NCBI GenBank assembly: GCA_964596065.1
Contig: CAZQSM010000001.1
Span: forward strand, 69,818-133,817
Reading direction: 5' to 3'
Length of the DNA stretch: 64,000 nucleotides
Source: an uncultured Chlorobiaceae bacterium
GTDB taxonomy: Bacteria; Bacteroidota; Ignavibacteria; UBA10030; SZUA-254
Shown here: positions 23,783-32,448 of the stretch, piece after piece
Position numbering within the stretch: the first letter of the stretch is position 1
Layout of the letters: every line of letters starts with the position of its first letter
Translations under genes and position numbers: made by a program
The notes under the pieces: model-generated
The model's input: only the letters and a program-made list of their open reading frames with translations
What the model was told of the DNA's origin: nothing
Database searches by the model: none

Positions 23783-25915
23783 ATGCCGAAAAAAATACAC
23801 ACGACCGACCAGCTCATCGATCGCATCCGCGGCCTCGCGCGGAACCTCTGGTGGTCCTGGAACCCCCGCGCCCAGCTCATCTTCGAGGAACTCTCGCCGC
23901 TCACCTGGGAGGAGACCAGGCACAATCCCGTGGCGGTGCTCTCACAGGTCTCGGAGATGGAACTCCGGGCGTACCTGAACGACAGGGACTTTCGCGGGAT
24001 GGTGGTCCCGGTGCTCGAGGATTTCGACCGCTATATGGCCCGGAAGCCGTCGATTTCGCTCCCCCGCCGGTCCGGATCCTCCAGGCGCGGCGGTCCCGTC
24101 GCCTACTTCTGCGCCGAATTCGGACTGCACGAATGCCTCACATTTTATTCAGGAGGCCTCGGCATCCTCGCGGGGGACCATGTGAAATCGGCGAGCGACC
24201 TCGGGCTTCCGCTCGTCGCCATCGGGCTGTTCTACCGCCGCGGCTATTTCGAGCAGAAGATCGACGACGCCGGCCGGCAGGTCGAGGAATACCCGACCAT
24301 CGACCCCGCCCTGATCCCCGTGCACTCGGTCAGGGACGCCTCCGGAAAACCCGTCGTCAGGAGCGTCACCATCGGCACGGAGGAGGTGTTTTTCGAAACA
24401 TGGCGGGTGGACGTCGGGAAGTCCGTCGTCTACCTCCTCGACACCGATGTCCCGGAGAATTCGGAGCAGGCGAGGGGACTGACGTCGCTCGCCTACGGCG
24501 GCGACACGAACATGCGGATCCGCCAGGAGATCGTCCTCGGGATCGGAGGCGTACGGCTCCTGCGCGCCCTCGGAATCACGCCCGCGGTGTTCCACATGAA
24601 CGAGGGCCACGCGGCGTTCCTCACCCTGGAACTGCTGCGCGAGGAGATGGAGCGCACCGGCGACATCGCCGTGTCCGAGGCCTCCGTCCGCTCGCGCTGC
24701 CTCTTCACGACGCACACACCCGTGCCCGCGGGACACGACCGGTTCCCCAGGGACCTGATGGAAAGCACGCTGAAATCGCAGTGCGACGCGATCGGGATCG
24801 ACACCGACCGGCTGATGTCGTACGGGACCGCCGGGCCCGACGCCACCGGCCACGAATTCACGATGACCGTGCTGGGCCTGAAATTCTCCCGCGCGGCCAA
24901 CGGCGTCAGCAAGAAACACGGGGAGATATCGGCGATCATGTGGAAAGACCTCTTCCCGCGCTCGACCGCGAAGAACCCCCCGATCGGCCATATCACGAAC
25001 GGCATCCACATCCCGAGCTGGACGTCGCGCCGATCGTGGGAATTCTGGGAACGTCGGAACTCGCACAAGTGGAAGGACGAGGTCAGCCACCCCCGGTTCT
25101 GGGAGCATATCACCGACCCGAAGGTCGTCACCGACGAGGAACTCTGGTCGCTCCGGTACACGCTCCGCCGCGACCTGATCGAATTCGTCCGACGGCGGAC
25201 CCAGCAGCACAGGGTCGTCGGCGGCCCGACGGGGAAGGAGGCGCTCTACAACCTCCTCTCGTACGACACGTTGACCGTCGGCTTCGCGAGGCGGTTCGCC
25301 CCGTACAAGCGGGCGCCGCTCCTCTTCTCGGACATCGGCAGGGCCGTCGAGCTGTTCAACAACCCGGCGAGGCCCATCCAGCTGATCTACGCCGGGAAGG
25401 CGCATCCGCGGGACGGGGGAGGGAAGGACTTCATCCGCCAGATCACCGATTTATGCGCCCATCCGACCTTCCACGGCAAGATCGTCTTCCTTGAAGATTA
25501 CGACATCAACGTCGCGCGGTACCTCGTCTCGGGATGCGACATCTGGCTCAACACGCCCCGCCGCCCCCTCGAAGCAAGCGGCACCAGCGGACAGAAAATC
25601 GCCATCAACGGCGGACTCCACCTGAGCATCCTCGACGGGTGGTGGATCGAGGGATACAACCGCAGGAACGGCTGGGCCATCGGCGGGATCGACCCGATCC
25701 CCCGATCGAACGAGGAAGCCGACGCGGCGGACGCGGCGTCGCTCTACGACCTGCTGGGGAACGAGGTGATACCCCGCTTCTATTCCAGGGACACCACCGG
25801 GATCCCGAGAAAATGGATTGCGATGGTACGGAATTCGATGAGGACGCTGATCCCCGTCTTCAACACGCACAGGATGGTCACCGATTACGCCAGGAAATAT
25901 TATTTCCCGGGGTAA
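23783..25915 (+). CDS. glgP: Alpha-glucan phosphorylase (GT35, short bacterial/archaeal type)
   Basis: 710 aa. PLP-site region LEASGTSGQKIAINGG (compare EASGTSGMK). YFCAEFGLHECL N-terminal signature of alpha-glucan family phosphorylases. Confidence 0.85.
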   Translation: MPKKIHTTDQLIDRIRGLARNLWWSWNPRAQLIFEELSPLTWEETRHNPVAVLSQVSEMELRAYLNDRDFRGMVVPVLEDFDRYMARKPSISLPRRSGSSRRGGPVAYFCAEFGLHECLTFYSGGLGILAGDHVKSASDLGLPLVAIGLFYRRGYFEQKIDDAGRQVEEYPTIDPALIPVHSVRDASGKPVVRSVTIGTEEVFFETWRVDVGKSVVYLLDTDVPENSEQARGLTSLAYGGDTNMRIRQEIVLGIGGVRLLRALGITPAVFHMNEGHAAFLTLELLREEMERTGDIAVSEASVRSRCLFTTHTPVPAGHDRFPRDLMESTLKSQCDAIGIDTDRLMSYGTAGPDATGHEFTMTVLGLKFSRAANGVSKKHGEISAIMWKDLFPRSTAKNPPIGHITNGIHIPSWTSRRSWEFWERRNSHKWKDEVSHPRFWEHITDPKVVTDEELWSLRYTLRRDLIEFVRRRTQQHRVVGGPTGKEALYNLLSYDTLTVGFARRFAPYKRAPLLFSDIGRAVELFNNPARPIQLIYAGKAHPRDGGGKDFIRQITDLCAHPTFHGKIVFLEDYDINVARYLVSGCDIWLNTPRRPLEASGTSGQKIAINGGLHLSILDGWWIEGYNRRNGWAIGGIDPIPRSNEEADAADAASLYDLLGNEVIPRFYSRDTTGIPRKWIAMVRNSMRTLIPVFNTHRMVTDYARKYYFPG

Positions 25916-25926
25916 CCGGGGTCGGC

Positions 25927-27837
25927 ATGGACTCACTCCGCCATCTGAAGCTTCTCCACGAGGCGTTGTCACACCCCCAGGATCAGGTCCGGACCCGGAG
26001 GTACGCGATACCGGGGCGATGGTTTCCCACCGGCCACCGGGCCTCCCCGGCATCCCGTGATCCGTTCGCACTGTACGCGTCGGTAACCGGCGCGGTCCTC
26101 AATGCCGATCCCGTTCCGCTCTGCGGCTCCGGCCAAACGGGGGGAGGGTGGTGCAGGGAAGCGGTCGTGTACAATATGCTGGTCAGGCTCACCTGTGCCT
26201 ACGACCACGACGGCGACGGCGTCCTCGGCCTGCCAGTCAACGGCGACGGTTGGAGGGAGACCGGTTCCTTCCTGAAGGCGATCGCCATCCTTCCCTACAT
26301 CCGGTCCCTCGGCGCGAACACGATCCATCTCCTCCCGGTGCAGCAGATCGGAATGGACGGCAGGAGGGGGACGCTGGGATCTCCGTACGCCGTGCGGGAT
26401 CCCCTCGCGATCGACCCGTCGCTCGGGGAACCGAACACCGGCGTCCCGGCCATGACAGAGTTCGCCGCCTTCCTGGAAGCCGCACGGCATTCGGGCTTTC
26501 GCGTTATCGTCGAAATACCGTTAAGAACTCTCAGTAAAGACGCTGCCTGGGTTGAAGATAACCCGGAATGGTTCTATTGGATTCGATCCGACCGAAAATT
26601 CGCCCCGCCCAGGTTTGACCGTGAGGAGATAGCGGCTGCGACGCGGAAGATCGAGGCCGGGGACCGCGAGGGGTTGCCCCCCCCGTCAGCGGAATACCGG
26701 GGGATCTTCACGGCTCCGCCGCAGAGGGGTGCGGTGCGCCTGGATGGGGTCCGGTGGAGCGGCACTTTGCCGGACGGTCAAGGGGTCGTCGTCCCGGGCG
26801 CCTTCGCCGACTGGCCGCCCGACGACCACCAGCCGGTCTGGGACGACGTCACCTACCTGAAATTGTATCAGGACCCCCGGTTCAACTACCCGGCCTATAA
26901 CACTGTGAGGATGTATGATTCAAGCCTTCTCCATGGAGATTCAGCAACAGCAACATTGTGGGAAAAACTGGGATCCGTCGTAGCGGCGTACGCGGGGATG
27001 ACGGGGGTCGACGGGATCATGATCGACATGGCCCACGCGCTCCCGGAACCACTCGTACGCAGGCTCGTCGCCGGGGCGAGGGATATCAATCCCGGATTTT
27101 CCTTCTGGGCGGAGGATTTTTCGAGGACTCCCGGCCAGGTCAGTGTCGGATTCGACGCGGTCCTGGGGGGACAGTGGGCCTGCCAGCACAATCCGGTCGA
27201 TTTTGCCTCGATGCTCGATTGGATCTCCGGGACACCCCAACTGCTCCCGCACCTCGCGACACCGGAGACGCACAACACCCCCAGGGCCGCCGGCAGGAAG
27301 TGGGGCGCACGCTACTCCCGATATGCCTGGACGATCAGTTGTTTCATCCCCGGCATCCCTTTCATCCATTCAGGTTTTGAGTTATACGAAATCCGGCCGG
27401 TCAATACAGGACTTGGCTTTACCCCCCGGGAGCTCGCCTCGTTTCCAACTGAAGAACTTCCTCTTTTCAGTCCTCACGCTCTCTCCTGGAGTCAGGCAGA
27501 TGCGACGGTCGAGTGGGTGGCCCGTCCGCTCGGTATCAGGGCCCGATTCAACGATTGCATCCTCCCGGTCGTTGGGGCGGAATGCCGCATCGTCGACCCG
27601 GGCGACCGGCGCGTCCTCGCGTTCATCCGGTCGAACCGAAACTCGGGCCATTCCCTCCTGATTGTGGGCAACAGCGACCTGGAGCATCGTGTCGATTTCA
27701 CCCTCCGGGGGGTCACTCCCCGGGGCGGGTCGTGGACCGACCTGCTCTCGGGAGAATCGATCGGGGGTTTCCCCGGCGGCGTCAACGGGGGCCTCGATCC
27801 CGGCCAGGTCTTCGTCTTCGAACTGACGGGGTCCTGA
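25927..27837 (+). CDS. GH13 alpha-amylase-family enzyme
   Basis: GSFLKAIAILPYIRSLGANTIHLLPV, GSPYAVRDPLAIDPSLG, and catalytic region GVDGIMIDMAHALP. Start at Met MDSLRHL, 9 nt after glgP; the ORF-track 5' extension overlaps glgP. Confidence 0.7.
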   Translation: MDSLRHLKLLHEALSHPQDQVRTRRYAIPGRWFPTGHRASPASRDPFALYASVTGAVLNADPVPLCGSGQTGGGWCREAVVYNMLVRLTCAYDHDGDGVLGLPVNGDGWRETGSFLKAIAILPYIRSLGANTIHLLPVQQIGMDGRRGTLGSPYAVRDPLAIDPSLGEPNTGVPAMTEFAAFLEAARHSGFRVIVEIPLRTLSKDAAWVEDNPEWFYWIRSDRKFAPPRFDREEIAAATRKIEAGDREGLPPPSAEYRGIFTAPPQRGAVRLDGVRWSGTLPDGQGVVVPGAFADWPPDDHQPVWDDVTYLKLYQDPRFNYPAYNTVRMYDSSLLHGDSATATLWEKLGSVVAAYAGMTGVDGIMIDMAHALPEPLVRRLVAGARDINPGFSFWAEDFSRTPGQVSVGFDAVLGGQWACQHNPVDFASMLDWISGTPQLLPHLATPETHNTPRAAGRKWGARYSRYAWTISCFIPGIPFIHSGFELYEIRPVNTGLGFTPRELASFPTEELPLFSPHALSWSQADATVEWVARPLGIRARFNDCILPVVGAECRIVDPGDRRVLAFIRSNRNSGHSLLIVGNSDLEHRVDFTLRGVTPRGGSWTDLLSGESIGGFPGGVNGGLDPGQVFVFELTGS

Positions 27838-27848
27838 CAGGAGGGCGC

Positions 27849-28592
27849 ATGTGCGGACGGTTCACCATCACGACGGACAGGGTCGAATTCATCCTGAAGA
27901 AGTTCCACGCCATCCCTGCCACCGGTTTCAACGGGATCACGCCGCGGTACAACGCCTCCCCGGGGCAGCTTGTCCCCGCCATCGTCGCGAAGGAGGACGG
28001 GGTCCGATACCTCACCGACGTCCTCTGGGGCTTCGTCCCCCCCTGGGGGGAGGAGAAGGGGGAGGCGGGATACCAGATCAACATCCGCGACGATACGATC
28101 GCGCGCAACAAGTTCTTCCGGTCGCGCCTCCTCTCGGGCCGCTGCGTCCTCCTGGCGGACGGATTCTACGAGTGGCGGAAGCCGCCCGGCTTCGAGCACC
28201 TCCCACGCGGGAAGAGGCTCCCGAAGGGGGTACGGAAAGTTCCGCACAGGATCGTCCTCTCGGACCGCAAACCATTCGCCCTCGCCGGACTCTGGCGCAC
28301 TGTCGACATCAATGCAAAGCACGTCCTGACCGCGGGGATCATTACCACGTCCCCCAACGCCCTGGTCGCGCCGATCCATGACCGGATGCCGGTGATCCTC
28401 GACGACCGCGATCTTTCGCTCTGGCTCGACCCCCGCTCCGACGACTTCGACGCGCTCCACAGCCTGCTCGACCCATATCCCGCCGGGGAGATGGAGGCCT
28501 ATGCGGTTTCCGACGCGGTGAACAACAGCCGGAACGACGTCATCGCCTGTATCGCCCCGGCGGATGATCCGCCGGCTCCGCGGAAGCGTTGA
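27849..28592 (+). CDS. yedK: SOS-response-associated peptidase (SRAP / YedK / HMCES family), abasic-site sensor
   Basis: Begins MCGRFTI (catalytic Cys2 after Met1), about 247 aa, conserved SRAP core. True start 12 nt after the GH13 stop. The 3' end overlaps the convergent PolB gene by about 53 nt. Confidence 0.85.
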   Translation: MCGRFTITTDRVEFILKKFHAIPATGFNGITPRYNASPGQLVPAIVAKEDGVRYLTDVLWGFVPPWGEEKGEAGYQINIRDDTIARNKFFRSRLLSGRCVLLADGFYEWRKPPGFEHLPRGKRLPKGVRKVPHRIVLSDRKPFALAGLWRTVDINAKHVLTAGIITTSPNALVAPIHDRMPVILDDRDLSLWLDPRSDDFDALHSLLDPYPAGEMEAYAVSDAVNNSRNDVIACIAPADDPPAPRKR

Positions 28593-30912
28593 CCGCCGCG
28601 TCAGGCCACGCCACCACCGACTCCGGGGCGGCGACCCTCTCCGGCCGGCCGCCGCGACCGACCGTCGAACGCCTCCCGCCGGACCGGCGCCCATTCACCC
28701 CGTAGATCTCCGCGAGCTTCGCCCGGTCGTATCCGAACGGCGAAAGGAGGGTCTCCACCGCTTTCAATAAAAACTCGGTGTATTTTTCGATGTCGTACCC
28801 GTCCCAGTGCTGGTACGTGAGCAGGCTCTTGGCCTTCTGGGGATCGCGCCTGCCGCTCTGGTCCACGATGATGTAATCGATGACTTCGCCCGCCTTTACC
28901 GTCACGCCGAACGCCGCGAGTTCCCGCACCACCATCGCGCTCAGGTTGTTGGTGACATATTCGTCCGCCTCCTTCTGGACCCGACGGCGGAGCACGAGCT
29001 GTTTCGGGTCGGCGCGGCCTGCGCGCAGTTCGTTCAGGTAGAAACCAGCCTCGCGGATCAGTTCGGGGGCCCTGGCGGCGATCTCCCGGACGTCCTTCAT
29101 CTCCGACATCAGTTCCAGCAGCCGCGCCTGCATCGTCTTGACGAACCAGGGGGTGTCCTTGCGGCGCACCTCGATTCCCCTGGTCTTCATCTCGCCGTGG
29201 GCGTACCACCCCGCGTACTTTCCGGACGTGGGGATGCCGGGGTCGGTCTTCGATGAAGGGAAGAGGAGCCAGGTGTACATCCCCTCGAACGAGACGGTGA
29301 CGCCGACTTCGTCCCTGATCTCCTGGCAGAGCCTGAGGTACTCCTCCCGGGTCGCCCCCGGCTTTTTGAGCCAGAGGCAGTCGATGATGGCGTGCACCAG
29401 GTGAAAGCCGCCGGCCTCGGCGATTTCCTTCGCCCGCAGGAGCGCCTCGCGCGAATACGCGTTCACCGACTCGTGCGCCTCGATCCTCCCGAAGCGCGCG
29501 TTCTTGTACCCGAGGTAGCCGAAGCAGGTCACGAGCATCCACTTGAGCGCGTTCTGCCTCCGGTCATACTTCCGGTACTCGGCGAGGGTGGGGGCGTTCT
29601 TCCTGCGCATCTTGTAATACGCCCGCTTCTCGAGGACCGGTTTGAGCGTCGCCGGAACGATCCCTTTCCGCCGCTCGCAGATCGTGTATCCCAGCTCCGG
29701 CACCTTCCGGTTGTCGCAGCAGGGGCAGTTGATCGTCTCCGGGCTGATGTTGTGCAGTTCCATCAGGCTCGGGTACATGCTGGCGAAATCCAGCTCGGCG
29801 ACCTCCTCGTGGTATCCCATCTCGGGCATGAAGACCAGACCGCCCCGGTCGCTCAGCAACAGCTCGTCGGCGCTCTTGAAATCCTCGCCCTCCTTCTTTT
29901 CGGCGGGGATCAGGATGTTGTTCCGGTACGCGTAGCTCATCTGCATGCTGGCGAGCCCCGTGCCGATGGCCGCCCGGGACTGCTTCTGCATCGGGAGCTG
30001 GGTGAGGCGCGCCAGTTCGATCACCCCCTCGATGTCCGATTCCCCCATGATGAAGCTGTTCTCCGAGTCCATATGCCAGCGGCCGGCCAGCATGAAGGCG
30101 GCGTCGCGGTGGATGATCTGGCCGTAGGTCCAGTAGCTGCGCTCCTTCGTGGTGAAGTACTCCCGCGACCGGTCCCGGTTCAGCAGGAGCGGCACGCGGT
30201 GGCGCAGCGAAGCGTTCTGGATGGTGGGGAGGAGGGTGGCGTCGCCCCACGCCGTCAGGATGATGTCGGGGTCGTACTCGTGCAGGTGCCAGTTGAACGA
30301 CTCCAGGATCGACACGGCGTCTTCCCCCTCGAGCGCGTGGGTCGCGCCGTCGTAGTGCAGTTCGAGGTTCAGCGTCCGGAAGAACTTCGACGGGACGTCT
30401 GCCCCGCCGTTGGTGATCCGCAGGATCCTGAGGTCGGGGAGGGCGTAGTCCCGGGCGTCGAAGCTGTCGCGAACCCCGATGCGCTTCAGCGTCCCCGCGC
30501 CGTCGACGGTGAATTCGCAGCGCGCCAGGGGGAAGACCTGCCGGTCGTAGAGGTACATCTGCGCCACGGGGATGTTGCTGTTGTAGAACGCGAAATGGGG
30601 GAAGAACTTCTGCAGCGCCGAGACGCAGCGGTTGAACTGCAGGGGGTCCCGGACCGTGACCTCCTCCACCTGCCACGCCTGGCCGCTGAAGAGCTCCGTC
30701 TTCACCGCCGTCCCGAGCGTGACCGGCAGGCCGCGCACGAGCGCCGGGAGCCGGAGCGCGTCGCGCCGGTCGAGGCGGAGGTAGAACGAGGGGGCGAAGG
30801 GGTCGACATAACTGCGCGCGGCGCCGTTATCGTCGAGGAGCCAGACGGTCATCCCGCCTGCGACCGGATAGGCGTCGAAGAACCAGCCGTCAATCGTGGC
30901 CACCGGCGTCAC
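28540..30912 (-). CDS. Archaeal-type family-B DNA polymerase homolog with degenerate exonuclease and polymerase motifs (predicted catalytically inactive or impaired)
   Basis: 790 aa. Motif A LDFASMYPSLM intact. KxY region TRGIEVRRKDTPWFVKTMQARLLE strongly conserved. Exo I reads LRILRITNG (Asp/Glu replaced by Arg/Thr). Exo II reads DPDIILTAWGDATLLP (Asp to Leu). Motif B reads KWMLVTCFGYLGY (the NSxYG residues are altered). Motif C reads HAIIDCL instead of YxDTDS. Confidence 0.8.
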   Translation of the reverse strand: MTPVATIDGWFFDAYPVAGGMTVWLLDDNGAARSYVDPFAPSFYLRLDRRDALRLPALVRGLPVTLGTAVKTELFSGQAWQVEEVTVRDPLQFNRCVSALQKFFPHFAFYNSNIPVAQMYLYDRQVFPLARCEFTVDGAGTLKRIGVRDSFDARDYALPDLRILRITNGGADVPSKFFRTLNLELHYDGATHALEGEDAVSILESFNWHLHEYDPDIILTAWGDATLLPTIQNASLRHRVPLLLNRDRSREYFTTKERSYWTYGQIIHRDAAFMLAGRWHMDSENSFIMGESDIEGVIELARLTQLPMQKQSRAAIGTGLASMQMSYAYRNNILIPAEKKEGEDFKSADELLLSDRGGLVFMPEMGYHEEVAELDFASMYPSLMELHNISPETINCPCCDNRKVPELGYTICERRKGIVPATLKPVLEKRAYYKMRRKNAPTLAEYRKYDRRQNALKWMLVTCFGYLGYKNARFGRIEAHESVNAYSREALLRAKEIAEAGGFHLVHAIIDCLWLKKPGATREEYLRLCQEIRDEVGVTVSFEGMYTWLLFPSSKTDPGIPTSGKYAGWYAHGEMKTRGIEVRRKDTPWFVKTMQARLLELMSEMKDVREIAARAPELIREAGFYLNELRAGRADPKQLVLRRRVQKEADEYVTNNLSAMVVRELAAFGVTVKAGEVIDYIIVDQSGRRDPQKAKSLLTYQHWDGYDIEKYTEFLLKAVETLLSPFGYDRAKLAEIYGVNGRRSGGRRSTVGRGGRPERVAAPESVVAWPDAAVNASAEPADHPPGRYRR

Positions 30913-31174
30913 CGGGCGCTTCGACCGTCCGCACGTACTGCGCGGTCTCGAGGTATTTGATCTTCTTGTACTGCTCGAGCAGCATGCTCATGAAGATCGA
31001 TTCGAGCGGGAGTTCGCTCGCGATGAAGGCCCCGGCGGCCAGGTGGAGTTTCGGCGCGCGCCACATCTCGTCAAAGAGCTCCTGGTCTTCCTTCCGGAGG
31101 GCCCGCCGGAACTTGCTCCAGGCCTCCCTGTTCCGGTCGATGAGCAGCGTGAAGGTGTCGTTGTTGCGTCCCAT
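30890..31174 (-). CDS. Small hypothetical protein (94 aa) between the ImuA-like gene and the PolB homolog
   Basis: Balanced, helical-looking composition (REAWSKFRRALRKEDQELFDEMWR...). Overlaps the PolB start by 23 nt and the ImuA-like ORF 3' end by about 104 nt. An alternative start at Met37 (about 31066) would remove the upstream overlap. Confidence 0.4.
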   Translation of the reverse strand: MGRNNDTFTLLIDRNREAWSKFRRALRKEDQELFDEMWRAPKLHLAAGAFIASELPLESIFMSMLLEQYKKIKYLETAQYVRTVEAPGDAGGHD

Positions 31175-31880
31175 GAGGGGTGCTCCGTTGCTGGTTCGGT
31201 GTCTGGTGCAGGTCCCGGTGCAGGTCCTGGTCGAGGTAAAAGTCCGCGCCGTCGTGCCCCAGCAGCAGCGCCTCGTCCGCGCCGCGCCGCACCAGGCCGA
31301 AGAGGTCCGGTTTTCCCGGCGGGGCCGCCCGGCCCACGTCCACGTCGGCGATCAGCACGTGCGCGCCCCCGCGCGCGAGCGCCGCGAAGGTCCGCATCAC
31401 GCGGCCGAGGCTCTCCCGGCACTCGGAAGGCCTGACCTGCTCGTCGTAGTAGGTGTCGAGGAGGCCGGTCACGACGACCAGCGGGCAGGGGACGCGGGCC
31501 AGGAAACGGGGGAGCTTCGACGTGACGGCCTCCTCCGTCTGGAACGCCGTGAACGACCGGGTGACGTGGATCCGGGCCAGGGTTTCCTTCGGGGGGAGCC
31601 CGAGGAACGACGACAGCCGGGAAATGATATAGCTGTTGAAGCGCATCGATCCGTCGATGACGGCGACGGGGCGTTTCGAGGCGCAGGCGAACAGGAGGGC
31701 GGCCGTATAGACCGACGAGTGGCCGTGGAGCAGGTGGACCGCCCCCGGAAACCCCAGGAACCGGCCCGCGGCCGGGCCGAGGCCGGCAAGGGGCGTAAAA
31801 CGGGAGGATTCCGTCTGTCCGAAATATACCGGCGAATGCATCGGGAGGAGTGTGATTTGTTCTCCCGGATGATACGACAT
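31071..31880 (-). CDS. ImuA/SulA-like inactive RecA-fold protein
   Basis: The pattern SRFTPLAGLGPAAGRFLGFPGAVHLLHGHSSVYTAALLFACAS matches the ImuA-style degenerate P-loop region (no GKT/S). PLVVVTGLLDTYYDE is a Walker-B-like strand. The C-terminal about 50 aa are low-complexity. The true start may be Met14 (see promoter feature). Confidence 0.45.
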   Translation of the reverse strand: MSYHPGEQITLLPMHSPVYFGQTESSRFTPLAGLGPAAGRFLGFPGAVHLLHGHSSVYTAALLFACASKRPVAVIDGSMRFNSYIISRLSSFLGLPPKETLARIHVTRSFTAFQTEEAVTSKLPRFLARVPCPLVVVTGLLDTYYDEQVRPSECRESLGRVMRTFAALARGGAHVLIADVDVGRAAPPGKPDLFGLVRRGADEALLLGHDGADFYLDQDLHRDLHQTPNQQRSTPHGTQQRHLHAAHRPEQGGLEQVPAGPPEGRPGAL

Positions 31881-31897
31881 ATTTGTCGCATTGTCAA
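31869..31897 (-). promoter_or_regulatory. Sigma70-like promoter TTGACA-17-TATCAT overlapping the annotated ImuA-like start
   Basis: In gene orientation: TTGACA (revcomp of 31892-31897), a 17-nt spacer, then TATCAT (revcomp of 31869-31874). The -10 lies inside the first annotated codons, which suggests a leaderless start or a downstream start at Met14. Confidence 0.4.
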
Positions 31898-31928
31898 TAG
31901 ACGTACGATAAATTTGTCGTCGACAAAA
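31881..31928. promoter_or_regulatory. Candidate operator: ATTTGTCG repeats, including a 7-1-7 palindrome TTTGTCG-T-CGACAAA (31913..31927)
   Basis: ATTTGTCG occurs at 31881-31888 (in the promoter spacer, abutting the start codon) and at 31912-31919, 31 bp apart. The second copy forms a perfect inverted repeat with CGACAAA at 31921-31927. The surrounding region is AT-rich. Confidence 0.5.
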
Positions 31929-32067
31929 TGAGCGTAATTCGGGAAAAACGTGCCGTCGTGGGCGAAATGGAGCGGGAAGGGACGGTTCGGTGTGATGCGC
32001 GTCAACCGACGTAACGAAGCGAGCAGTTATTTTAATTTATTGAAAAAAAGATACACGACACCTTTGT

Positions 32068-32448
32068 ATGGGTACCCAGCAGTTACTCCTCATCATCGTC
32101 GGGATCATCATCACGGCCATCGGCATCGCCGTGGGTATCCAGCTGTTCGGCGCCTCGAGCACGTCGTCCAACAGGGACGCGCTGATCAACGACATCAACA
32201 ACCTCGCCGCCAACGCGAAGCAATACAGGACCAAGCTGCGGTCGATGGGCGGCGGGGGGGGGAGTTACGTCGGATATACCGTGCCGCCGAAGCTGGTGAG
32301 CAATGACGACGGGACGTTCAGCGCCGTGGTACAGGCGGCGAGCGTCGTGATCACCGGGACCTCCGCGCTCGGGTTCGGGACCGTGTCGGCCACCATCGAC
32401 ACCGCGGGAGCCGCGGGGAACTGGACCTACACGGGTCAGTTCCAGTAG
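32068..32448 (+). CDS. Small secreted/membrane-anchored protein with pilin-like hydrophobic N-terminus and Gly/Ser/Thr-rich body
   Basis: N-terminus MGTQQLLLIIVGIIITAIGIAVGIQLFGASSTSS lacks the canonical G-F-T-L-I-E prepilin motif. Preceded by an AT-rich promoter-like stretch (ttattttaatttattgaaaaaaagatacac). 126 aa. Confidence 0.4.
   Translation: MGTQQLLLIIVGIIITAIGIAVGIQLFGASSTSSNRDALINDINNLAANAKQYRTKLRSMGGGGGSYVGYTVPPKLVSNDDGTFSAVVQAASVVITGTSALGFGTVSATIDTAGAAGNWTYTGQFQ

Follow-up and report, generated by a model that had tools for sequence, protein, structure and literature searches.

A probable PolB2 mutasome operon with a paired-operator promoter and a convergent SRAP gene in an uncultured Ignavibacteria/Bacteroidota genome

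Locus organization

Here, we describe a four-gene locus in a 64-kb stretch of DNA (the window; 64,000 nt of contig CAZQSM010000001.1) from an uncultured Ignavibacteria/Bacteroidota genome. The locus is very probably a bacterial PolB2 mutasome operon, iRadA-PPB2-PolB2, with a separately transcribed SRAP gene alongside. The system has already been described and the window holds a typical member of it. The original prediction on this DNA had placed the same four genes, and their open reading frames (ORFs) were confirmed, with the start of the first gene moved from 31880 to most likely 31841. Its general view of a mutasome-type damage-tolerance cassette also stands, in the form of a RecA-superfamily protein with a dead ATPase, a small protein and an archaeal-type family-B DNA polymerase that has lost its proofreading. 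The genes are:

31071..31841, minus strand: iRadA, 256 aa, RadA/Rad51 fold with ATPase motifs lost (ORF listed as 31071..31880, 269 aa)
30890..31174, minus strand: PPB2, 94 aa, GGAG 8 nt 5' of the ATG
28540..30912, minus strand: PolB2, 790 aa, family-B DNA polymerase, exonuclease domain inactivated, motif C 'IID'
27849..28592, plus strand: SRAP/YedK/HMCES-type gene, 247 aa, N-terminus MCGRF, convergent with PolB2

The three minus-strand genes are adjacent and overlap in the order iRadA-PPB2-PolB2, by 104 nt between iRadA and PPB2 and by 23 nt between PPB2 and PolB2. The 3' ends of PolB2 and SRAP overlap by 53 nt.

An inactivated RadA, a small helical protein and an archaeal-type PolB

The product of the first gene, previously proposed to be ImuA/SulA-like, is an inactivated RadA/Rad51 homologue (iRadA) and neither ImuA nor SulA. 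Pfam and NCBIfam scans of the window protein returned no family match, including ImuA, RecA and SulA. Its 63 database homologues all derive from Bacteroidota or Ignavibacteria metagenome-assembled genomes (MAGs), and one of them passed the Pfam Rad51 threshold. The proposed RecA-fold similarity was recovered at the profile and structure level: a profile of 28 homologues matched only RadA, Rad51 and RadB in the PDB (best archaeal RadA, 2e-4), the sole other match being an unrelated chain at a non-significant E of 6.3. The AlphaFold2 model (mean predicted local distance difference test score, pLDDT, of 84, core >95) retrieved RadA, Rad51 or Dmc1 for all top 50 Foldseek matches in the PDB (E~1e-9). 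The P-loop is ruined, as had been noted from the sequence: HGHSSVYT occupies the Walker A position and no GxxxxGK[TS] is present in the protein, while the Walker B position reads VVVTGLL with its Asp replaced. The core begins near residue 10, and the N-terminal helix-hairpin-helix domain is missing.

Three observations make ATG 31841 the most likely iRadA start. ATG 31880 falls within the conserved operator/-10 sequence ATGTCGTATCAT, a database protein that is 100% identical to the window iRadA (P0001) has 256 aa, and the related locus L002 carries a GTG at the position equivalent to ATG 31841. ATGTCGTATCAT reads 'MSYH', which explains the MSYH N-terminus in some gene calls. At the other end, the last ~45 residues form a predicted disordered tail (AlphaFold2 pLDDT <50 for residues 213-242) that is read through the PPB2 start in another frame. 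In this region (31071..31174), where the iRadA 3' end lies over the PPB2 5' end, and in the equivalent regions of L002, L003, L018 and others, iRadA homologues use either alternative frame across the MGRNNDT codons, with tails of the type '...HGTQQRHLH...' or '...WDATTTPS...'. The apparent conservation of the iRadA tail is therefore a by-product of PPB2 coding.

The 94-aa product has the characters of the PPB2 family, that is, an alpha-helical protein of ~90 aa with an N-terminal MGR arm including Arg3 (MGRNNDTF in the window, 'MGRT' in the family description). AlphaFold2 models it with helices throughout, the last of which, at the C-terminus, is long. Hardly any variation is seen in the N-terminus MGRNNDTFT, with M1, G2, R3, N4 and N5 at least 90% conserved, and more distant homologues begin with MGRT. 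In precomputed annotations, 182 homologues carry Pfam PF26485 (DUF8156); our own Pfam and NCBIfam scans gave no match for the window protein with a Pfam set that was used without PF26485.

The 790-aa product is a family-B polymerase (Pfam DNA_pol_B, 5e-37) of archaeal type, in agreement with the original prediction. Its best NCBIfam models are two archaeal-type 'type B DNA-directed DNA polymerase' models (1e-115), on which it scores 388 bits, below their cut-offs of 516 and 692. The NCBIfam Pol II models reach 28-68 bits against cut-offs of 570 or more. Motifs were mapped by HMMER alignment to KOD polymerase. Motif A is LDFASMYPS, in which D375 corresponds to KOD D404 and Y380 to KOD Y409; motif B is KWMLVTCFGYLGY, with K457 at the position of KOD K487; and motif C is HAIIDC, in which I509-I510-D511 align with KOD D540-T541-D542 and D511 preserves D542. 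Only the first Asp of the DTD is gone, and both metal-binding Asp (D375, D511) are retained. D375, Y380, K457 and D511 are invariant in 20 PolB2 homologues of 52-87% identity.

The exonuclease domain is in a different state. Pfam DNA_pol_B_exo1 gave no match to PolB2 at E<=1. On inspection of the sequence, RILRITN takes the place of the Exo I DxE and the invariant L227 that of the Exo II Asp; Exo III has F273 for the Tyr and keeps D282. Judged by these residues, PolB2 is a polymerase without proofreading. The degeneracy claimed for it by the original prediction thus applies to the exonuclease residues and the first motif C Asp, and in the alignment to KOD not all catalytic residues are retained (I509 for D540); the further claim of a catalytically dead polymerase is probably wrong, as the metal-binding Asp are kept. 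PolB2 also contains an NRDR segment (245-248) with invariant N245 and R246 and an at least 90% conserved D247, followed by R248. Judged by its position, this segment may correspond to the conserved D(K/R) loop through which PolB2 is described to touch the PPB2 arm (253-DK-254 in Sulfolobus islandicus).

Conservation of the operon

When one genome per GTDB species was scanned by alignment, at least 560 relatives were confirmed, of which the best 80 were kept. These 80 loci all come from MAGs of the Ignavibacteria/Bacteroidota group, apart from a few unclassified bacteria, and the six-frame ORFs of relatives' loci were searched with the window proteins. Upstream DNA of 1.3 kb or more was available for 68 loci, and in 62 of these iRadA and PPB2 precede PolB2 on the same strand. 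The gene order persists at 33-36% PolB identity, with a PPB2 with MGRT start directly upstream of PolB2 in L083, L084 and L085 and iRadA also detected in L083 and L085. SRAP was found within 6 kb in 17/80 loci. It is convergent and downstream as in the window in L001, L002, L005, L009 and L013, also in L081; in the remaining arrangement it is divergent and lies just upstream of iRadA. The recurrent linkage of the polymerase gene to a RecA-fold partner and to SRAP, which had been suggested for examination, was thus found, with the qualification that the partner is RadA-type and not ImuA-like. A gene for an S24-peptidase repressor is present in 20/80 loci.

In L014, L015, L055, L069 and L071, iRadA and PPB2 were not detected near PolB2 (~0.9 to 6 kb upstream), even with profile hidden Markov models, and these loci may represent solo PolB2 genes or split operons. 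L014 and L015 carry dual CGACA-W4-TGTCG operators, the element described below, directly upstream of PolB2. In L036, L049, L056, L057 and L062, the operator pair is located 1.3-2.4 kb upstream of iRadA, which suggests that at least one additional gene is inserted in front of iRadA.

Promoter and operators

The intergenic region 31881..32067 has a G+C content of 45% compared with 64% for the window. The AT-rich upstream region of the original prediction is therefore real; its palindromic repeat is a different matter, as detailed below. The following elements were recognized upstream of iRadA:

31906..31919, minus strand: operator O1, CGACAAATTTATCG, one mismatch to CGACA-N4-TGTCG, just upstream of the -35 box
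31892..31897, minus strand: -35 hexamer TTGACA, conserved in aligned upstream regions of related loci
31875..31888, minus strand: operator O2, CGACAAATATGTCG, perfect CGACA-N4-TGTCG-type palindrome that fills the spacer and abuts the -10 box
31869..31874, minus strand: -10 hexamer TATCAT, separated from the -35 box by 17 nt

The two hexamers form a sigma-70-like promoter with 11/12 matches, the only one found in 27600..32300. The centres of O1 and O2 are 31 bp apart, and a spacing of 31-32 bp is repeated in related loci, whose aligned upstream regions share a conserved block of CGACAnnTTTATCG, ~11 nt, TTGACA, 3 nt and (C/A)GACAAAnnTGTCGTATCAT. Operator sites with at most one mismatch occur at 2.5/kb in the 300 nt upstream of iRadA and at 0.083/kb elsewhere, a ~30-fold enrichment over a background determined from 854 kb of locus DNA. 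O1 and O2 are the only sites with an A/T spacer in the 64-kb window. The palindrome TTTGTCGaCGACAAA (31913..31927), noted in the original prediction, was rejected as a functional element; it is missing in L002, the closest relative with upstream DNA. By comparison of the upstream regions, this palindrome is specific to the window and O1 and O2 are the conserved elements.

The candidate repressor

The S24 proteins of related loci fall into two classes. In 16 loci a CI-type helix-turn-helix (HTH) domain (HTH_19, Phage_CI_repr, HTH_3) is combined with Peptidase_S24, and in 4 loci LexA_DNA_bind is combined with Peptidase_S24, as in canonical LexA. CGACA-W4-TGTCG occurs in 16/16 CI-HTH/S24 loci, ahead of iRadA, immediately ahead of the repressor gene, or at both positions, and upstream of the operon in 0/4 canonical-LexA loci (L018, L025, L040, L068). 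On this distribution, operator type appears to track repressor type. A different repeat of the TAGTA/TACTA type (ATAGTA...TACTAT) was observed in the lexA promoter of L025, L040 and L068. That the operator motif is common to all 16 CI-HTH/S24 loci suggests SOS-type control, and from the same comparison we infer that the window operon is repressed by a CI-type HTH/S24 protein encoded outside the window.

CI-type HTH/S24 proteins ('non-canonical LexA') are experimentally validated SOS repressors of Bacteroidetes (Sanchez-Osuna 2021, PMC8565304). The repressors beside related operons share their HTH_3/Phage_CI_repr plus Peptidase_S24 architecture, and the two systems are further alike in a fixed-spacer dyad operator and in the control, here presumed, of an error-prone polymerase operon. 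They differ in the operator sequence, which is GGA-N5-TCC or CTAA-N5-TTAG in that study and CGACA-W4-TGTCG here, and the window does not contain the repressor gene of the present genome. The main text of PMC8565304 makes no mention of Ignavibacteria. A literature search for a LexA motif in Ignavibacteria returned nothing relevant, the published Bacteroidetes and Balneolaeota motifs differ, and neither the CGACA-W4-TGTCG operator nor its link to a CI-type rather than canonical LexA repressor was found in the literature searched. We consider it evenly poised whether the dual CGACA-W4-TGTCG element serves a CI-type HTH/S24 repressor of Ignavibacteria-lineage Bacteroidota as a hitherto undescribed SOS box. 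If it does, the PolB2 mutasome operon would be a core target of this regulon, perhaps its main error-prone polymerase target, and the non-canonical LexA concept would reach the Ignavibacteria lineage with a third binding motif.

The SRAP gene

As originally predicted, an SRAP gene converges on the 3' end of the polymerase gene. Its 247-aa product matches the full Pfam SRAP domain (1.1e-56), and Cys2 as well as the Asn (NIRDDT), Glu (GFYEW) and His (IHDRMP) residues are intact. In alignments with HMCES and YedK these four residues are kept, and NxRxDT, GFYEW and IHxRMP are conserved with HMCES; the protein is therefore probably functional. A gap of 11 nt separates the SRAP ORF from the gene before it, and a GGAGGG precedes the SRAP start. 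The 53-nt overlap of the PolB2 and SRAP 3' ends (28540..28592) is also seen in the close relatives L002 and L081. No terminator-like site was found between the two genes, so that convergent transcription could interfere. The linkage between SRAP and the operon is positional and recurrent.

Immediately upstream of SRAP, at 23783..27837 on the plus strand, lie an alpha-glucan phosphorylase-like and an amylase-like gene. As the second is only 11 nt away from SRAP, glycan-metabolism genes and SRAP may share a transcript in this lineage. In L081, a Phosphorylase-family gene occupies the equivalent side of SRAP, and an unannotated gene for 377 aa lies in between.

Assignment to the PolB2 mutasome operons

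The original prediction held this gene combination to be undescribed, which was wrong since it appears in two comparative studies. Makarova, Krupovic and Koonin (2014, PMC4104785) reported PolB2, an inactivated RadA-family protein and a ~90-aa arCOG07300 protein in one predicted operon of archaea and several bacteria, sometimes with lexA. Timinskas, Timinskas and Venclovas (2025, PMC11791011) coined the names iRadA and PPB2 for the partners, found iRadA-PPB2-PolB2 to be the only gene order in bacteria, identified the conserved 'MGRT' arm of PPB2, and modelled PolB2:iRadA:PPB2 as a 1:1:3 heteropentameric mutasome. According to the same study, most PolB2 lack the first Asp of DxD (401-IID-403 in S. 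islandicus), the clamp-binding motif is optional and present in only a fraction of PolB2/iRadA members, and lexA, SRAP and DUF72 genes are enriched around PolB2 operons. A 2026 survey of bacterial B-family polymerases lists the group as G2/PolB2 (PMC12926913).

The locus in the window agrees with these descriptions in its three families and the sole bacterial gene order, in an exonuclease-dead PolB with an IID motif C, in an ATPase-dead RadA core without the N-terminal domain, in a helical PPB2 of ~90 aa that bears an MGR(T/N) arm, and in the recurrence of SRAP and S24-repressor genes nearby. It departs from them in that the window proteins have no recognisable clamp-binding motif and the repressor gene is not adjacent.

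Several points weigh against this assignment or narrow it. Motif B is altered, with V461 at the position of KOD N491, and the first motif C Asp is lost, with I509 in place of D540; for this reason polymerase activity can be assigned to PolB2 only by analogy with Sulfolobus Dpo2. A regular-expression scan of the C-terminal 70 residues found no beta-clamp-binding motif in the PolB2 or iRadA of the window; clamp-type motifs (QLPLL, QLTMF or QIPLF) occur in the PolB2 of some homologues. For bacteria, the PolB2 complex is a predicted one. No S24 repressor was found in the 64-kb window with E. coli LexA and two locus-derived repressors as queries. As to the SRAP gene, a scan of the same 64 kb showed no CGACA-type operator at it and it appears to be co-transcribed with the upstream glycan-metabolism gene; given the 11-nt gap and the missing operator, it is probably not co-regulated with the operon.

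The original reading cast the locus as an ImuA-ImuB-DnaE2-like cassette, in which the family-B protein would be a catalytically dead scaffold in the ImuB slot that recruits another polymerase. Ile in place of the first motif C Asp and the altered motif B are what such a scaffold might show, as is the exonuclease domain that Pfam failed to detect, and inactivation was also predicted in earlier comparative work (PMC4104785). The two systems do resemble each other as three-gene mutagenesis cassettes with SOS-type induction, predicted for the present operon, and an inactive RecA-superfamily protein. Yet the operon and its conserved neighbourhood contain neither DnaE2 nor a Y-family or other additional polymerase; ImuB (Y-family) and DnaE2 (C-family) are absent from the operon and no ImuB/DnaE2-type Pfam domains were found near it in the syntenic relative. 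The RecA-fold partner is RadA-derived and not ImuA, and the polymerase itself is presumed to be the catalytic subunit. Invariance of the metal-binding Asp pair and of the motif A, motif B and KxY residues would be unexpected for a pure scaffold. The closest experimental parallel is the Dpo2 of S. islandicus, a robust polymerase without proofreading, for which mismatched termini and termini opposite a lesion are efficient substrates of extension (Feng et al. 2022, PMC8764526). Because Dpo2 carries the same IID motif C and is active as an extender in translesion synthesis, the role of a dead, ImuB-like scaffold is unlikely for PolB2, by analogy probably not the role of this protein, and we regard the scaffold cassette as a whole as very improbable.

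The Dpo2 of S. islandicus and S. solfataricus thus serves as the model for PolB2, with which it shares the IID motif C, the loss of proofreading and the same operon partners. In contrast to it, the bacterial protein (~790 aa) has a predicted activity only and falls below the NCBIfam archaeal-type cut-offs, and regulation in the archaea runs via Orc1/Cdc6-type factors, not S24 repressors. An architectural analogy drawn in PMC11791011 extends to E. coli Pol V (UmuD'2C-RecA) and yeast Pol zeta. The common features, predicted for PolB2, are a polymerase that binds a recombinase-family protein via an oligomerisation-like motif, a small subunit with an inserted N-terminal arm, and a damage-inducible complex that acts as extender. 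Pol V, however, is built from other protein families (Y-family UmuC, UmuD') and its RecA is active, unlike iRadA. E. coli-type Pol II (bacterial PolB group G1) is a single-subunit PolB that combines an active DEDDy exonuclease with a beta-clamp motif at the C-terminus, neither of which is present in PolB2.

A complex outside translesion synthesis, with a role in replication restart, origin-independent initiation or replication regulation, was raised by Makarova et al. (2014, PMC4104785) from ORC-like neighbours in archaea, and RadA-like proteins can serve recombination-dependent replication. The bacterial neighbours, however, are S24 repressors and SRAP, i.e., DNA-damage genes and not replication initiators, iRadA lacks the ATPase motifs and the N-terminal domain, and Sulfolobus genetics, according to PMC11791011, connects PolB2 with targeted mutagenesis; for the present locus we hold a replication role to be a shade less credible even than a dead scaffold. 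Least plausible of all, to the point of being hardly tenable, is an origin of the operon as phage, prophage, other mobile or defence cargo with a CI-type repressor and operators as phage-derived immunity elements: the phage-CI-type HTH of the associated repressor, the dual operators around the promoter that recall phage immunity regions and distant PolB2 operons on three IMG/VR contigs speak for it, but no close relative exists among 2.9 million viral contigs (best 36% identity, on contigs from isolate genomes), PADLOC gave one spurious match only (a PolB segment to an intein/homing endonuclease model), CI-type S24 repressors are established SOS regulators of Bacteroidetes (PMC8565304), and both the G+C content, which is in line with the surroundings and not anomalous, and the flanking housekeeping genes, shared in synteny by a relative of 87% identity, speak against a mobile island.

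Proposed function of the PolB2 mutasome operon

Our analysis shows gene content and order, folds, motif states, operon conservation, and the conservation and placement of operators; the following model takes the assembly of a complex, the activity of the polymerase, induction by damage and the repressor's identity from published work or analogy. Without DNA damage, the two CGACA-W4-TGTCG operators would be occupied by a self-cleaving repressor of the S24 family that is encoded outside the window, most likely a CI-type HTH plus Peptidase_S24 'non-canonical LexA'. The operators lie three helical turns apart, on either side of the -35 box of the near-consensus promoter, and extend over its spacer and -10 box. 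DNA damage would activate RecA and thereby induce self-cleavage of the repressor, which would open the promoter. The three overlapping and probably translationally coupled genes would then yield PolB2, iRadA and PPB2, predicted to assemble from one PolB2, one iRadA and three PPB2, with one PPB2 N-terminal arm (MGRN...) placed between PolB2 and iRadA near the DNA. PolB2, with no proofreading and its polymerase chemistry retained, would extend termini opposite lesions or mismatches, and this extension would complete translesion synthesis and leave damage-induced mutations. SRAP would act independently through a covalent Cys2 link to abasic sites in single-stranded DNA at stalled forks.

As the operon, the predicted complex, its archaeal origin and the lexA/SRAP association are already published, the locus carries little weight as a discovery. 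The operator-promoter architecture, with its putative link to a CI-type repressor, is our sole addition to published work, and a modest one. Its residual value lies in a clean, well-conserved promoter/operator arrangement and a candidate regulator class for damage-induction tests. The recurrent juxtaposition of SRAP could guide work on the coordination of abasic-site protection with extender-type translesion synthesis.

Divergent ORF upstream of the operon

A divergent 126-aa ORF is located at 32068..32448 on the plus strand and is not conserved beside the operon in L081. Its product has an N-terminal hydrophobic segment followed by a Gly/Thr/Ser-rich part, and may be a small, secreted or membrane-anchored protein.

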